From Promethearchaeota archaeon (GTDB lineage: Archaea > Asgardarchaeota > Lokiarchaeia > Sigyniarchaeales > SOKP01): a stretch of DNA of 45,373 nucleotides. Location: NCBI GenBank assembly GCA_016839705.1, contig JAEOTR010000037.1, positions 1 to 45,373 of the forward strand. Direction: 5' to 3'. The notes beneath the pieces were generated by a model, which was given only the letters and a program-made list of their open reading frames with translations, was not told the DNA's origin and did no database searches. The translations under genes and the position numbers were made by a program. This document shows positions 23,344-44,095 of this stretch, one piece after another; within the stretch, counting starts at the first letter, position 1, and every line of letters begins with the position of its first letter.

Positions 23344-24600
23344 CTAATTTCCATCCTTTTTATCTAACCATTCTTTAAAAGCTTTAGTTTGCTTTCCATG
23401 CCAAATGGCATTTTTTTGATAGCCTTTTTCGAATTCTTCTATCTCTTCTTCCAGATCATCTAAAGATGATTCTAGTATCTCTGTTTCTTTCTCACCTTCC
23501 TCAAGATCTATTGATAATTCGTAATGTTCTCCTGTAATTTCCTCAAGCGCACTCATAATATCTTCAAGATCTTCTTTTTTTCGTTCTTGTAAAGGCACTT
23601 TCTCAAGAACTGTTTCTTCAGAATCCTCTTTTATTACTTCTTTTTTTGTTTTCTCAAAAGCTTTTTTTCTTTCCAATTTCTCTTGTTGCGTGTCCTTAAT
23701 CTCCTTAATTATAGTTTCATAATTATCTTTGAAATATTTTAAACTTACATTGATAAAATCTGAAAAACTCTCCCAATTCTCATTTTTTATAATATTTTCA
23801 ACCCAATAATATAAATCTAAGTTTAATTCAACTGTTACGGGTTTTCCTTCTGTTTCTACTCCGGTTGTCAACCAACTTAGAATATTAGCTATTAATATAT
23901 CATTATCAAAGGATGTAAATCCATATTCTCTTGTAAGAGAAGAAAAAATACTGAAGTTCCCAAGTCCCACAACCCTTCCTGAATAATATTCCACAGCTAC
24001 CAACAGTGGAATTTTAGGGGAATCTTCTTCAACCCAGTCGTTTCCATCAAAAATCTTATGCCAACTATTTAATCCAGATAGTAACAGTTCATAGACTTTG
24101 ATATTTTTTTCATCTTCAAGATAATCTAAAATTCCTATAGAACATGAGCTTGAAAAAACTATTTTCTTAATCTGTTCTGTTATTACGTGGGGTATAAAAC
24201 TTGATATAAGGGGTCTTTTTTGAAGTTTAACGAAATTCACAGAGTCATTTATCTCATCTGATATAAATTCAAATCCGAAATTTCTTGTCAATTCATTTAA
24301 ATTTGTTTTATTAGTATGATCTCCTCCACTAGAACTTGTTATTAAAAGATTTCCACCATTTTTTACATAACTTTTGAGGGTATTAATTTCATTTGGCTTC
24401 AAGTTTTCATTTCTTGGCGTTGACAAGATTATAGCAGTATATTTCTTTAAATCATTTGCAGAACTCAGCCCCTTTTCAATTTTAGAAACTGAATATCCAG
24501 AAGTAAACAAAAATTGGGTAAATTCCGAAAAACTGGATGCTTCTAACGCTAAAATATTGCTGTGGCTATTATCAAGACCAATGATAGCTTTATCTGGCAA
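23344..24600 (-). CDS. GIFT-domain (IFT52/GldG-like) protein with RHH-like segment and acidic tail
   Basis: LDNSHSN, YVKNGGNLLI...GG...TNLNEL...FG, GRVVGLG...N...LSWLTTG; no signal peptide. Confidence 0.7.
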   Translation of the reverse strand: MPDKAIIGLDNSHSNILALEASSFSEFTQFLFTSGYSVSKIEKGLSSANDLKKYTAIILSTPRNENLKPNEINTLKSYVKNGGNLLITSSSGGDHTNKTNLNELTRNFGFEFISDEINDSVNFVKLQKRPLISSFIPHVITEQIKKIVFSSSCSIGILDYLEDEKNIKVYELLLSGLNSWHKIFDGNDWVEEDSPKIPLLVAVEYYSGRVVGLGNFSIFSSLTREYGFTSFDNDILIANILSWLTTGVETEGKPVTVELNLDLYYWVENIIKNENWESFSDFINVSLKYFKDNYETIIKEIKDTQQEKLERKKAFEKTKKEVIKEDSEETVLEKVPLQERKKEDLEDIMSALEEITGEHYELSIDLEEGEKETEILESSLDDLEEEIEEFEKGYQKNAIWHGKQTKAFKEWLDKKDGN

Positions 24601-38579: not shown

Positions 38580-39311
38580 CTATTTCTCGAGTTGACGCGC
38601 TACACCAATATACATTAAATATCCTCCCACAATAGCACAAATAATGCCCGTCCCTACTGCTATTGTTCTAAAAATCGAATCATTTAAGAAATTCGAAATT
38701 GCTATTGTGTATAAAAAGATCATAAAAGCACAGAAACCATATATAAAATTTTTCCATTTCTTTTTTAATTGTACATCTTCAAATTTATGGTATGCTCGAT
38801 ATGAAAGATATAATACCGGACCGACAGCAAATATTGATTCAATACAGATTACATAAACAAAAAGAGATATTCCCCAAACTGGTGACCACTCATCAAGTGT
38901 TACACCCCAACCTGGTTGGATAAATCCTGGTAGGACAAAAAAAATCATACAAAACATAAGTATACCATAACCAATTAATATAAACAATTGTTTCTTCGTA
39001 TTGATATATTTTTCTGATTTGAGCAGCATTAATTCGAATACTACAAAAAAAATCGGGGAATAGTACATAAAAAAATTCGTTAAGAAGTTTAAAACCCGTA
39101 CAACATCTACATTAGGGATGGGGCCATAAATAAAGTTAATTATAAGCCCAATAACACCAAATAGATAAAATCCTGCGAATATAAAGTTTAGCCTTTTCCT
39201 GTCTCGCTTAAGAATACGATATACTAAATAAGCATCCCATAAACAAACAAGCATTTGAGCGCCGTAGATGGTTATAATACGTATTGGACTTTCCAATTGA
39301 AAAAAAACCAT
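38580..39311 (-). CDS. Stand-alone 7TM membrane protein, paralogue 1
   Basis: Seven hydrophobic segments; shares TIYGAQ, ILKRDRKRLN, LNFLTNFF, LLKSEK, KFED..LKK.WK.F with its neighbour. Confidence 0.8.
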   Translation of the reverse strand: MVFFQLESPIRIITIYGAQMLVCLWDAYLVYRILKRDRKRLNFIFAGFYLFGVIGLIINFIYGPIPNVDVVRVLNFLTNFFMYYSPIFFVVFELMLLKSEKYINTKKQLFILIGYGILMFCMIFFVLPGFIQPGWGVTLDEWSPVWGISLFVYVICIESIFAVGPVLYLSYRAYHKFEDVQLKKKWKNFIYGFCAFMIFLYTIAISNFLNDSIFRTIAVGTGIICAIVGGYLMYIGVARQLEK

Positions 39312-39340
39312 TTGAAATCACTCTAGAAAGCTTATTTTGT

Positions 39341-39374
39341 TTTATTTAAAAATTTTTGTTATTGTAATTATTTT
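39341..39374 (-). promoter_or_regulatory. Duplicated upstream element of 7TM paralogue 1
   Basis: TTTATTTAAAA..TTTTGTTATTGTAA.TATTT is near-identical to 40224-40257 and at a similar distance from the start codon. Confidence 0.45.
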
Positions 39375-39483
39375 TTGTAATTATTAATACTGCTCTTATT
39401 GGAGTGATTTAGGAATATATTTTTCAAAAGTGTTACTTAAAGGAATCACCTTGTTTAAAATAAAAAAAAAAAAGAATATCTAA

Positions 39484-40209
39484 TTACTCTATGCTTTTTC
39501 CTACACCATAATAAATTAAATAACCACCAATTAATGCTAGTATTAACCCGAGTGCCCCCATTCCGATTCTGAAAGTCGAATTATTTAGTGTATTAGATAT
39601 AAATATTCCATACATAAAAATAAAAAGAGCACATACACCGACAATAAAAAATTTCCATCTTTTTTTCAATGTTTCATCTTCGAATTTTTTGGAAATTTGC
39701 ATAGCAAAATACAAGGTTGGGATTATACCTCCGAGAGTAACCACCAGTAACACATAGATGAAAAATGGTACACTCCAAATAGGTGCCAAGCTAGCATTAA
39801 GAGTTACACCAAATCCTTCAACGAAAACAAGGAGGATCATGCAAAATAACGCTATTCCATAAATTAGTATTATTAGTAACTGTTTGGGGAATGTTATGAC
39901 TTTTTCAGATTTCAATAGTATTAGCTCAAAAATAACCAAAAATATTACAGCAAAATAGATAAAGAAATTTGTCAAAAAATTTAAAATCCGAACAATAGTA
40001 TCATCTACAATCGGAGCATAAATGAAATTAATGAATAATCCTGCTACTACAGACAAGTAAAACAGTGAAAAAATGATATTTAATCTTTTCCTATCCCGTT
40101 TAAGAATCTTATATGCTAAAAAGAGGAAAAATGCGAATAGTATGCCTTGAGCACCATAGATTGTGAAAGCTCGAGTTGCGTCTAATTGATATAAGACCAT
40201 ATATTTCAC
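39484..40209 (-). CDS. Stand-alone 7TM membrane protein, paralogue 2
   Basis: Seven TM segments, clearly homologous to paralogue 1, ending YYGVGKSIE. Confidence 0.8.
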   Translation of the reverse strand: MKYMVLYQLDATRAFTIYGAQGILFAFFLFLAYKILKRDRKRLNIIFSLFYLSVVAGLFINFIYAPIVDDTIVRILNFLTNFFIYFAVIFLVIFELILLKSEKVITFPKQLLIILIYGIALFCMILLVFVEGFGVTLNASLAPIWSVPFFIYVLLVVTLGGIIPTLYFAMQISKKFEDETLKKRWKFFIVGVCALFIFMYGIFISNTLNNSTFRIGMGALGLILALIGGYLIYYGVGKSIE

Positions 40210-40223
40210 TCATTTATTTATTT

Positions 40224-40257
40224 TTTATTTAAAATAGTTTTGTTATTGTAACTATTT
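40224..40257 (-). promoter_or_regulatory. Duplicated upstream element of 7TM paralogue 2
   Basis: Copy of the 39341-39374 element; contains TATA-like TTTAAATA on the minus strand. Confidence 0.45.
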
Positions 40258-40338
40258 GCATTTCTCTATTTATTATTATTGCTGTTTTATGATTGAATGA
40301 GGATGATAAATTCTAAGAGTTAATTATAATGAATTCAT

Positions 40339-41029
40339 TCATTCAAGTTGTCTTCCGACCCCATAATAAATGAGGAATAAAGATATTAACGTAGGGAGAG
40401 ACAATATTGACCAGACTAATCTAAAAATATCACTATTTAAAGTGTTTGAAAATGATGTACCATAATAAAGAAAGAAATAACCAAGCACTCCAATTAAAAA
40501 GTATTTCCATTTTTTTTAAAATGTAGATTTTCAAATTTAGAATAAATTTTTAACGAAAAATAACTTGTAGGGATAATCAATATAGTACTACAAACGATAA
40601 TTGAATATATAAAGAAACTCCCACTCCAATGTGGTTTCCAATTAGTACTTTGATTTATTTGAATCCCGTTTGGAATAAAAAGTAATCCTAAAAGAACAAT
40701 GGCGACGACAACTAACAACGCAATTTGGATTTTTGTATTAAACTTATCAACTGGTTTTAAAAGAATTAATGTAAAGATTAACAATAAGATCAAAGAATAA
40801 CAAACTAAGTAATAAGTTATAAAATGTAAAATGTAAACAATATTCTCTACAAAAATATTCGCATAGATGATATTAATTAAACCACCAATAGTGGTGGAAA
40901 TGAAAAAGCCACTTAAGTAGAGATTGGTTCTTTTCTTACCTCTTTTTAGGATATAACTGCCATATAAAAAAAGAAAATCGCAAAACCTCCTTGTATTACG
41001 TAAATCTGTAGGAATCTTGCTAAATCCAT
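40339..41029 (-). pseudogene. 7TM paralogue 3 with two frameshifts (pseudogene or sequencing error)
   Basis: Hand translation: MDLARFLQIYVIQGGFAIFFFYMAV / ILKRGKKRTN...LLKPVDK...KFENLHFKK / WKYFLIG...YYGVGRQLE. One base is missing near 40952-40970 and one in the A8 run near 40510-40517. Restored length is about 230 aa. Confidence 0.8.
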
Positions 41030-41230
41030 AATTACTGTATCCCCTTTTTAAAAAGAAATTTGATGTAGTTTTGTCTAATAAGGAATACTATTTATTTTGT
41101 TTTCTAATAATTTAAAGATATATGATTCAAATCTTATTGTTAACGATGAGAACGAACTATTTGACTTTTTATTCAGCAAATTAATTGTAAAAGATGTAAA
41201 AAACAATAATTAACATAAACCTTTTTTAGG

Positions 41231-41425
41231 TTATTTCTCGCGCCATTCTTGCCCACATTTTCCACATCTAAACTTCTTTCCATACACTCTGGGATAATCA
41301 CTAATAATATTTGTTTTATCTGTAGTCTCATGAATCATATACTTATTTTCTTCATCACAGCTTGGACATTTTCGCCGACCCTCAGTCTTCTCAATTGTGA
41401 GTATATCGTTCAATTCTTCACTCAT
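41231..41425 (-). CDS. Small Zn-ribbon protein
   Basis: 64 aa, CPSC...YGKKFRCGKCGQEW. Confidence 0.75.
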   Translation of the reverse strand: MSEELNDILTIEKTEGRRKCPSCDEENKYMIHETTDKTNIISDYPRVYGKKFRCGKCGQEWREK

Positions 41426-41556
41426 TTGATATTTATCAACTCCATATTTGCAAAACTCTCATTTTTCCAAATTATATCTTAAAATGTATTATATTATTTT
41501 TATAACTTTTCTCTTTTTTACTATGACAAGATTATAAATTAATGGTATAAAATTGA

Positions 41557-42168
41557 TCAAAATTGATTAATTTGTCCATTATATTCCTTGATAAGTGATT
41601 TTCCATAAAGTTGAGCTTCTTCAAATAATTCTGGACTAGAATATCTGAAACGAAAAATAAAATCGTTAAACATTTTCTTATAAATCTTTATGATATCCTT
41701 ATTTTTATTATAAATTTCATAACAATAAATAACGTTTAAATATCTTGAAATTTCCTCCAAATTAAACCGACTAATTCGTAGTTTGTTTAAAGGATTATTT
41801 TTGGAGTTTTGTTCAAGATCTAATCCAACGAGTATTGAAATCCCTTGAAAGTAGTAGATTTCATTAAATTCTTCAATAATATCTTTAGAATATTGATAAA
41901 TAGATTTGGGATTAAACAAATTTACAGCTAATATAATTACATCAAGTTTCTCTATCTCATCAAATTTATGTATTAATTCCTCAATATTCTCAACCAAAAA
42001 CACTTTAATTTTTATTGGAATATCCTCGACAACAACTAAGAAATCTGAATAGCTTTCAGATGAGATAGGTTTTATGGCAAATTGCTTTATGTCGTTTAAA
42101 AAAATATCTGTATTATAATCTACATTACCAACAATTCCTATTCGTAGGCTATAACTAATTTTTTTCAA
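41557..42168 (-). CDS. Degenerate small-GTPase-like (Ras/Rab fold) protein
   Basis: Order of strands and helices matches a G domain (LRIGIVG; IPIKIKVF; LDVIILAVNLFNPKSI; ILVGLD; YEI), but the G1, G3 and G4 catalytic residues are absent. Confidence 0.55.
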   Translation of the reverse strand: MKKISYSLRIGIVGNVDYNTDIFLNDIKQFAIKPISSESYSDFLVVVEDIPIKIKVFLVENIEELIHKFDEIEKLDVIILAVNLFNPKSIYQYSKDIIEEFNEIYYFQGISILVGLDLEQNSKNNPLNKLRISRFNLEEISRYLNVIYCYEIYNKNKDIIKIYKKMFNDFIFRFRYSSPELFEEAQLYGKSLIKEYNGQINQF

Positions 42169-42272: not shown

Positions 42273-43211
42273 TTGGGTAATGAAATGCTTCTGGTTTATT
42301 TAGAATTGATTTTCATGATTATCATGTGGAGCTTTTCATTTGTTGTTGTAGATATTGCTGTTGAATTTATTTCTCCTTTATCATTTGCATTATATCGATT
42401 TGTTATTGCTTCATTTACATTTTTAATTATTGATCTCTATTTAAAGATAAGAAAAAATAAAGGAACTATTGATAATAACGAGAGCAAGAAATCTTTAAAA
42501 TTCCTCAAGAATGATTGGATTTTAATGATCCTTGCAAGTATTACTGGGATTTCTTTTTTCTTCCTTGCTCAATACACCGCAATACAAATAATAGGTCCTT
42601 CGCTCCCTGCCCTATTCGTATGTCTACTAGCTCCGGTTATTATTACAATTTTGGCATTAGTCTTTTTTAATGAAAAACTAACAGTTTTGAAGATTATTGG
42701 CTTTTTAATTGCTACTGTGGGGGGATTTCTTTTAATTACTGGCGGGGATTTGGCAAACCTCAGCCCTGAATCTCCAAGTTTTATTGGATATTTATTTGCA
42801 CTTATAACTCCTTTATTATGGGCAATATATTCAATAGCAACAAAAAAAATTATTCAAAAAAAATCAAACATTAAAACACTAAAATACATCGCTTACCTTG
42901 GAACTATAGAGCTTTTCGTTTTTGTGTTATTAAATAATGAATTATCAAATTTTATGATTAATCTCTTTAATGGTATTGTGCTTCTAAGTGCTTTATATAC
43001 TGGTATTGGATGCTACATTCTAGGTTATTATATTTGGCAAAATTCGCAGCTTAAGTTAAAATCCTCAAAAGCAGCATCATTCTTGTATATTGAACCTTTT
43101 ATAACACTTCTGTTTTCATTTTTACTTAAAAGAGGCGAAACGATTCTATTATGGAATATAATCGGAGGAATTATTGTACTAATTGCTGTACTTATAATAA
43201 ATTATAAATAA
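42273..43211 (+). CDS. DMT/EamA-family transporter
   Basis: Ten TM segments in two repeats, WSFSF, YRF, FFNEKLT, FLYIEP, GE. Confidence 0.9.
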   Translation: MGNEMLLVYLELIFMIIMWSFSFVVVDIAVEFISPLSFALYRFVIASFTFLIIDLYLKIRKNKGTIDNNESKKSLKFLKNDWILMILASITGISFFFLAQYTAIQIIGPSLPALFVCLLAPVIITILALVFFNEKLTVLKIIGFLIATVGGFLLITGGDLANLSPESPSFIGYLFALITPLLWAIYSIATKKIIQKKSNIKTLKYIAYLGTIELFVFVLLNNELSNFMINLFNGIVLLSALYTGIGCYILGYYIWQNSQLKLKSSKAASFLYIEPFITLLFSFLLKRGETILLWNIIGGIIVLIAVLIINYK

Positions 43212-43358: not shown

Positions 43359-43862
43359 TTGAGGTGTTTGATTATCGCACGAAGAATATATGTAAAAGGT
43401 AAAAAAACTCACGCAAAGGGAGAGACATTTACTCAAGATAATGTTGGAGAAGAGAAAGAACGATTTTTAATTAGCCTTGATCTAATGAGTTTAAAAACTC
43501 GAAAGGACTACGATGCTTTAGGAAGAGTGGGGGAATTTTATTTTAAGATAGATGGACCTAAAACTTTTAAAGCACGATTTCCTAATAAAGGAGTCATTAA
43601 ACTCCAAAAAAATCAAACCTTTACAAGTAAAGCAGATTTATCACTATGGAGTCAATTTAAGACAGTCCGTAGGAATGAAGAAGTCGTTGAGCACATTAAA
43701 GTAATTATAAGAGAAATGGATCACTTGAAAAAAGATCAGACTGTAGCAGAGCAAGATATAGAAATAAAACTACCCCAACAAACTGAATACTTAATAGTCC
43801 AAGATGCAGATGAAGACATAAAAGCTAAAATTCGAGTTCAAGCAACCAGAACCAGATATTAA
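43359..43862 (+). CDS. Hypothetical beta-rich protein, C2-domain-like
   Basis: DYDALGRVGEFYFKI and IKVIIREMDHLKKDQTVAEQDIEI resemble C2 loop 1 and loop 3 patterns; start uncertain. Confidence 0.5.
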   Translation: MRCLIIARRIYVKGKKTHAKGETFTQDNVGEEKERFLISLDLMSLKTRKDYDALGRVGEFYFKIDGPKTFKARFPNKGVIKLQKNQTFTSKADLSLWSQFKTVRRNEEVVEHIKVIIREMDHLKKDQTVAEQDIEIKLPQQTEYLIVQDADEDIKAKIRVQATRTRY

Positions 43863-43924: not shown

Positions 43925-44095
43925 CTAGTTTCTTTTCTCGAATTCGATGTAATCTTTATATAATTTTAACGTTCCTTCTTTTTCTAAAAACTTCCGTACT
44001 TCAGGGAGTTCAAAATAAAGACCTAATTCATAAAATTTCCAGAATATAAGAGTTACTTTAAAAGTGTATTCTTCTTCTGATGTTGAATATGTCAT
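43925..44095 (-). CDS. Possible 56-aa hypothetical protein (not in ORF track)
   Basis: Hand-translated MTYSTSEEEYTFKVTLIFWKFYELGLYFELPEVRKFLEKEGTLKLYKDYIEFEKRN; GGGA just upstream of the ATG. Confidence 0.35.
   Translation of the reverse strand: MTYSTSEEEYTFKVTLIFWKFYELGLYFELPEVRKFLEKEGTLKLYKDYIEFEKRN

Follow-up and report, generated by a model that had tools for sequence, protein, structure and literature searches.

A predicted Rab-fold pseudoGTPase tied to the Loki Zn domain in a conserved chromosome block that carries stand-alone seven-transmembrane genes in Lokiarchaeia

Results

Gene content of the locus

We analysed a 45,373-nt stretch of DNA (hereafter the window), one contig (JAEOTR010000037.1) of the 3.36-Mb marine-sediment genome of a Promethearchaeota archaeon of the class Lokiarchaeia (assembly GCA_016839705.1). 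Its minus strand carries consecutive genes for a Rab-like pseudoGTPase (G), a stand-alone zinc (Zn) domain protein (Zn1), three seven-transmembrane (7TM) genes (7TM-C, 7TM-B and 7TM-A) and a HhH-Zn protein (Zn2), next to a divergent EamA transporter gene (Table 1). What appears to be new here is a pseudoGTPase tied by adjacency and fusion to the Loki Zn domain; the Zn domain itself and Asgard 7TM proteins were already known. An original prediction, made from the sequence, had read G, the Zn ribbon and three 7TM genes as a possible signalling module, conceptually parallel to the coupling between G protein-coupled receptors (GPCRs) and G proteins. The genes are real and lie on the same strand, with the gaps of about 130–200 bp that had been described, which hold from G through to Zn2, and the upstream element that had been noted as duplicated is a 37-nt repeat whose copies are 81% alike. 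However, only 7TM-A and 7TM-B are intact, 7TM-C being a pseudogene, and the prediction stopped short of HhH-Zn, the co-oriented gene that comes next and the one found most constantly beside the 7TM genes.

Table 1. Positions and properties of the genes and upstream elements of the block in the window
Feature	Position	Strand	Properties
G, Rab-like pseudoGTPase, 203 aa	41557-42168	minus	Ras fold plus extra C-terminal helix (S-P-E-L-F...Y-G motif); G1, G3, G4 and G5 motifs lost
Zn1, stand-alone Loki Zn domain, 64 aa	41231-41425	minus	(CxxC)2, Tyr-tipped loop
7TM-C pseudogene (relatives: 230-aa subfamily)	40339-41029	minus	1-bp deletions near 40954-40958 and 40517-40521
AT-rich 37-nt upstream element of 7TM-B, candidate promoter/operator	40221-40257	minus	Duplicated ahead of 7TM-A
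7TM-B, intact, stand-alone, 238 aa	39484-40200	minus	N-out/C-in, GPCR/HisKA_7TM-like fold; long T run behind gene
Second copy of 37-nt upstream element, ahead of 7TM-A	39337-39373	minus	Sequence likeness to 40221-40257
7TM-A, intact, stand-alone, 243 aa	38580-39311	minus	Ortholog of the relatives' copy that precedes HhH-Zn; T run behind gene
HhH-Zn (Zn2), 115 aa	38086-38433	minus	HHH_5 domain plus C-terminal Zn ribbon; outside the originally predicted run
EamA transporter	42273-43211	plus	Divergent from G; syntenic marker of the block, used as internal control

G is a Rab-fold pseudoGTPase by prediction

A profile built from 68 homologs of G matches RabX3 (E 3e-5) and Rab12 (E 1e-4). The structure model of the 203-aa protein (predicted local distance difference test (pLDDT) 89) displays a six-strand Ras topology with one extra C-terminal helix, and the helical-domain insertion of G-alpha is absent, helix 1 and strand 2 being separated by only about 12 residues. 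The top structural matches are Rho/Rab-type domains, namely AGAP1 GLD, Rab3C and Sec4 (best Z about 13), and G also matches the pseudoGTPases AAGAB (Z 10.7), CENP-M (Z 10.7) and p190RhoGAP pG1 (Z 10.0); G-alpha is not among the top 50 fold matches, which does not exclude likeness. Neither the P-loop GxxxxGK[ST] nor DxxG is found in any of the 68 homologs, and [NT]KxD is found in one. The nucleotide loops are the least conserved part of G (weighted conservation 0.31–0.44), and conservation reaches 0.60–0.71 at the N-terminus, the b2-b3 turn, the a4-b6 loop and the extra helix, that is, on the helix and the face opposite the pocket. In AAGAB, the partner is bound by the face that lies across from the pocket (PMC12490416); together with the conservation pattern of G, this makes a static scaffold role the natural inference. 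By its modelled fold and motif loss, G is predicted to be a nucleotide-free, class-I-type pseudoGTPase, in agreement with its original labelling as a pseudo-GTPase, and a GDP/GTP switch by G is very unlikely.

G is single-copy and occurs in 117 of the 134 genomes of one Lokiarchaeia family. The G family is compact, with 54 clusters at E values up to 1e-10 followed by a drop to ordinary GTPases. The profile matched nothing in 26 genomes outside the family, yet it missed a divergent copy in another family that was later found by synteny (genome G008; it scores 27.8 bits, and other proteins of the own genome reach 18 at most), so that G is better described as not found there than as absent. A 209-aa open reading frame adjoining Zn2 in G012 was rejected as a G homolog. 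G apparently represents an undescribed, single-copy archaeal pseudoGTPase family; no published description of it or of the cluster was found in the literature searched, many subscription papers lying outside that search.

Further G-domain-like sequences were seen elsewhere. One G frame (L080:8321-9502, genome G079) continues into a fragment of ribosomal protein S3 (KH_2 and S3_C matches), as an insertion or an assembly chimera. In genus g20 (L215:11438-15175, L217, L218), a protein of 1244 aa that probably consists of helical repeats is encoded 1.5 kb from Zn2, and its N-terminus looks like a degenerate G domain, scoring only about 4 bits. Genus g18 has an intact small GTPase gene that converges on Zn2.

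Zn1 is linked to G by adjacency and fusion

Zn1 is 63% identical to the C-terminal domain of the two-domain gelsolin of its own genome, and domains of this type are also C-terminal in several coiled-coil proteins. The portions of Akil et al. (2022) drawn on here describe the Zn domain of Loki2DGel as having (CxxC)2 and a Tyr-tipped loop and as occurring C-terminally in unrelated proteins and in stand-alone copies; according to the same portions, no F-actin binding by the domain was seen, and binding to a cellular structure was proposed (PMC9433394).

We compared 60 loci from 13 genera, among which the loci of genera g1 and g12 were hand-picked in favour of long contigs and related genomes are not independent of one another. 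Zn1 lies directly behind G, or is fused to it, in 42 of 50 loci. G-linker-Zn fusions are found in genus g2 (326 aa) and in P0253 (400 aa, with an acidic linker); the fusion is intact in two g2 genomes and in P0280, and a second architecture exists. With these fusions, the Zn domain is a better-supported partner of G than the 7TM proteins that had been proposed. The G-Zn link is likely but not obligatory, because some genomes have lost G and kept Zn and others have lost Zn and kept G.

The 7TM proteins are stand-alone and share the GPCR fold

Relative to the intact 230-aa orthologs of its relatives, 7TM-C carries two 1-bp deletions. Contigs from a possible source run, spanning both deletion sites, and from two other samples of the same study, spanning one site each, match the window without gaps. 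Sequencing error is thereby ruled out as the cause of the frameshifts, and since these contigs agree with the window at the deletion sites, 7TM-C is a real pseudogene.

The 7TM model (pLDDT 94) has seven helices. Its best match among solved structures is to adhesion GPCRs (ADGRL3; Z 17.3, root-mean-square deviation 3.6, 215 aligned), and all of the top 50 structural matches have the GPCR fold; microbial rhodopsins are not among these 50, which does not exclude likeness, and the 7TM members have no consensus Lys column in transmembrane helix 7 (TM7) that could correspond to the retinal-binding Lys of microbial rhodopsin. Bacterial sensors bearing HisKA_7TM reach TM-scores of 0.70–0.76. Pfam matches to HisKA_7TM (PF16927) are weak and below the curated cut-off (5 of 70 members, best E 7.5e-4), with none in the genome of the window. 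The basic loops 1, 3 and 5 give an N-out/C-in topology. DRY and NPxxY are each found in 0/70 members; other GPCR classes lack these motifs too. The original description of the 7TM proteins as output-less agrees with their fold and topology: the 7TM frames of the block loci span about 230–260 aa and end just after TM7, without a fused kinase or cyclase, and a search for longer, fused relatives found none, which is weak evidence.

Near-invariant polar residues lie on the outer side of the protein (R10, Q18, N58, Y61, T77, W142, N203 and R211), and this sequence pattern suggests that an anionic ligand is bound in an outer pocket. Conservation of the 7TM proteins is highest in the cytoplasmic loops and the C-terminus (0.64–0.76, with 0.74 for intracellular loop (ICL) 1, 0.71 for ICL2 and 0.76 for the C-terminus, compared with 0.52–0.58 on the outside). 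From this conservation we infer a conserved soluble partner. The cytoplasmic loops are basic, and the C-terminus bears a family-specific motif, G-V-G-R-Q-L.

The 7TM tree contains two old subfamilies, a C-type and an A/B-type, which usually occur in tandem; 7TM-B is an extra copy and is 51% identical to 7TM-A. Members of the family are present in 145 of the 161 genomes of the class, including 19 of the 26 outside the family that carries G, and there are 1–11 matches per genome versus a single copy of G. Asgard 7TM proteins have already been reported among the eukaryotic signature protein families (bioRxiv 10.64898/2026.10.28.762692). A fourth member of the block 7TM family (L144:7664-7953, at the end of G000:C55) is cut by a contig end and is unlinked to G.

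Within the genus, orthologs are preceded by motifs similar to the 37-nt upstream element, and each of the two intact 7TM genes has a long T run behind it. Their own upstream elements and T runs suggest that 7TM-A and 7TM-B are transcribed separately. A scan for sigma-70 promoters and terminators gave results at the level of shuffled sequence, the sigma-70 model being unsuited to archaea. When 7TM-B and G were modelled as a complex (alignments A3 and A2), the score was 0.00, which counts neither for nor against coupling.

The neighbourhood recurs across one family within a conserved background

The gene order in the 60 loci is EamA, G, Zn1, an optional insert, one to three 7TM genes and HhH-Zn. 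This neighbourhood is found in all 12 testable genera of the family, so the original prediction does not fail for want of conservation, and because the neighbourhood recurs family-wide, the adjacency on which the original prediction was based is more than chance; it nevertheless falls within the background synteny of the family. Unrelated neighbours of G are also kept, including EamA (49/53), orf167 (39/47; a conserved 167-aa protein without a Pfam match, plus strand, 43359-43862 in the window) and an acyltransferase (29/41). An unrelated gene at a control locus persists in 16 of 20 distant genomes, and a tight pair, a GTPase and a uDENN-like gene, is adjacent in 50/50.

The uninterrupted, co-oriented G-Zn-7TM order that an operon would show is not kept across lineages. 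In 22 of 46 loci, from 11 of 12 genera, G is cut off from the first 7TM gene by opposite-strand genes, most of which encode Hdr-like Fe-S proteins; when g1, g2 and g12 are set aside, every one of the 14 testable loci in the remaining nine genera has such an interruption. By parsimony, with no rooted species tree, the unbroken run of the window is probably derived through loss of this opposite-strand insert. G has been deleted in place in three genomes (G052, which is 98% complete, G156 and G150) with the 7TM and HhH-Zn genes kept, and it was not found in G154 or G048, while their 7TM genes remain. The 7TM proteins of G-less genomes hold 0.57–0.73 of the cytoplasmic consensus, compared with a mean of 0.76 in kin with G, in a sample of few and related genomes. 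The proposed parallel to GPCR-G protein coupling is not supported: every nucleotide-binding motif of G is lost, the unbroken same-strand run is confined to g1, g2 and part of g12, and G is lost in place with the 7TM genes kept, which are also present in lineages where G is not found.

The tightest neighbour of the 7TM genes is HhH-Zn rather than G, directly behind the last 7TM gene in 54 of 57 block loci. In eight genomes of another family, f3, the distance from Zn2 to a Zn1-like gene is no more than about 3 kb, and in two a 7TM gene stands about 7 kb away.

HhH-Zn itself varies in architecture. In genus g2 (G027, L031:6605-7351), two copies of a small domain have taken the place of the HhH part, with the C-terminal Zn ribbon retained, and the f3 orthologs of Zn2 have basic, low-complexity N-termini in place of the HhH part. 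A 326-aa Zn-ribbon protein stands behind HhH-Zn in only five g1 loci (including L084:12345-13325) and is absent from the window.

Other 7TM-GTPase neighbourhoods and nearby genes

A different stand-alone 7TM-like gene lies directly before an intact small GTPase gene and a uDENN-like gene in L143:5806-7693 (G000:C85:24805-26692). This arrangement is mostly genus-restricted (25 of 29 g1 loci, only 2 of 21 others), and it is a better test case for 7TM-GTPase coupling because the GTPase is live. Two more stand-alone 7TM-like genes, in L146 (G000:C1:66345-69011) and L147 (G000:C63:26-1931), lie beside genes that were labelled by eye as DENN/longin-like, and one of the two is also convergent with a GTPase labelled by eye, from its sequence, as MglA-like.

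In the window, the 7TM-like gene beyond EamA (F13) has no profile match to the block 7TM family. A second decayed gene near the cluster (43925-44095, minus strand) is a 56-aa remnant of family F15, whose members are about 465 aa in relatives. Further away, at 23344-24600 on the minus strand, lies a gene for an IFT52 GIFT-domain protein that scores above the Pfam cut-off.

Discussion

A conserved block with a scaffold pair and separate sensors

Our results speak for a conserved block of the chromosome and not for a signalling switch of the GPCR kind. The stretch would belong to an old chromosome block, loosely conserved within one Lokiarchaeia family, and would contain at least two separately expressed units. 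The account that we favour, with about an even chance of being right, is that G and Zn form a nucleotide-free scaffold/docking pair, while separately transcribed 7TM sensors signal via a cytosolic partner. G would serve as a static protein-binding scaffold that uses the face opposite its dead pocket, and Zn1 would be a docking tag that, as at the C-terminus of gelsolin and coiled-coil proteins, may bring G to a shared cellular site. The 7TM proteins would each stand alone as sensors of small molecules, expressed from promoters of their own. The ligand, anionic or polar, would bind the outer pocket (R10, N58, Y61, W142, N203 and R211), and the signal would pass via the conserved cytoplasmic loops to a soluble partner, not necessarily G.

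Several observations weigh against this account. The 7TM genes are the best-retained marker near G, within 8 kb in 45 of 47 testable loci and in 12/12 genera, slightly above EamA, and they stay with the fused G-Zn gene in genus g2, where all upstream genes differ. In G008, from another family, the divergent G lies directly before the Zn2 ortholog and Zn1 stands beside a 7TM gene, hinting at an early linkage of all four genes. The tie between G and Zn is also open to challenge: a single origin of the two G-Zn fusions is not rejected (approximately unbiased (AU) test, p = 0.44), so that independent origins are not shown, G occurs without Zn in g6, g10 and some g5 and g12 loci, and Zn occurs without G in G052 and G154. 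Since the Zn domain fuses to many unrelated proteins, the G-Zn fusions may reflect read-through with a neighbour.

The same linkage of 7TM genes to G is an argument for a static coupling, in which nucleotide-free G docks on the cytoplasmic face of the 7TM protein, by the side of the fold that G-alpha presents to GPCRs, and is bound or released with ligand, Zn1 linking onward, for example to the site of gelsolin. Conservation and charge fit this model, as the most conserved 7TM parts are basic cytoplasmic loops, G is acidic (pI 5.2), and its conserved face includes the b1 start, the b2-b3 turn, the a4-b6 loop and the a5 extension, which we take to be the receptor face of G-alpha; adhesion GPCRs, moreover, are the closest solved structures to the 7TM fold. 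However, G is dispensable, having been lost in place from genomes whose 7TM proteins (a small, related sample) keep most cytoplasmic motifs, a single G would have to serve 1–11 7TM matches per genome, the G-7TM run is often interrupted, and the conserved face of G may merely pack the extra helix. We consider this coupling unlikely. Equally unlikely is its fuller form, in which a Lokiarchaeia-specific GPCR-fold receptor docks the Rab-derived G and signals via the gelsolin-shared Zn tag to the actin-regulating machinery, as an independent archaeal invention of a 7TM/G-domain system.

The constancy of HhH-Zn behind the last 7TM gene, which extends to loci where G is lost, would be explained if HhH-Zn were the 7TM partner, with G and Zn1 as scaffold and docking tag on the same pathway. 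The Zn2 ribbon that persists in g2 despite replacement of the HhH part, the G008 arrangement and the proximity of the three genes in f3 are all consistent with such a four-gene module. Outside the family, however, Zn2 is within 1.5 kb of 0/30 7TM loci, and the two genes are separated in G028 and G031. Relic synteny can explain the pattern, because SIR2 also persists near Zn2 in G008, and we give this model only a slim chance.

A slim chance also attaches to the simplest reading, that G, Zn1, the 7TM genes and Zn2 are independent neighbours held together by slow rearrangement, with the fusions as tolerated read-throughs. Background synteny is high, each gene pair is broken somewhere, and G tolerates an unrelated C-terminal addition, the S3 fragment in G079; against this stand the intact G-Zn fusions of two g2 genomes and P0280, the second fusion architecture, and the persistence of cluster fragments in other families. 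A true GPCR-like switch, with the 7TM protein as exchange factor and G cycling between GDP and GTP, perhaps via non-canonical residues, would account for a GPCR-like fold beside a Ras-fold gene, but it is highly improbable given the loss of all G motifs, the pocket loops that are the least conserved part of G, the missing helical-domain insertion and the 7TM proteins without DRY or NPxxY.

For the orphan Zn domain found in Loki gelsolins, the locus offers a first genomic lead on the binding partner, from adjacency and fusion. Promethearchaeota are further shown to have a family of GPCR-fold receptors in which both the predicted pocket and the cytoplasmic face are conserved. Should 7TM-G coupling prove true, the narrow range of G would make it a parallel invention and not an ancestor of G-alpha signalling.

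Comparison with known systems

The block shares with GPCR-heterotrimeric G protein signalling the 7TM fold, the N-out/C-in topology and a nearby G-domain gene, but it is without nucleotide motifs, a helical domain or class A motifs, and the linkage is not obligatory; the likeness thus holds only for the receptor fold and fails on the G side. HisKA_7TM (PF16927) sensor domains have a fold in common with the block 7TM proteins, and stand-alone Asgard 7TM proteins have already been listed (bioRxiv 10.64898/2026.10.28.762692); the block family differs in falling below the Pfam cut-off, in carrying no kinase or cyclase and in having its own C-terminal motif. The Asgard roadblock-Rab-DENN operon (Liu et al., 10.1101/2020.10.19.343400) is likewise a conserved Asgard neighbourhood around a small-GTPase-fold gene, although it combines an intact GTPase with a predicted exchange factor, whereas the present block has neither and is often interrupted.

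Closer parallels exist for G and Zn1. Like G, the class I pseudoGTPases AAGAB, CENP-M and p190RhoGAP pG1 have a Ras fold without G motifs and conservation opposite the pocket (compare PMC12490416); what sets G apart is that it is archaeal, stand-alone and Rab/Rho-derived, that it has an additional C-terminal helix and that it may carry a Zn tag. Zn1 and the C-terminal Zn domain of Loki2DGel are the same domain by (CxxC)2, Tyr-tipped loop and homology, as far as the domain is described in the portions of Akil et al. drawn on here (PMC9433394). Adjacency or fusion to a pseudoGTPase is seen at the loci studied here and not in those portions, and the G-linker-Zn layout is that of Loki2DGel-linker-Zn as given there.

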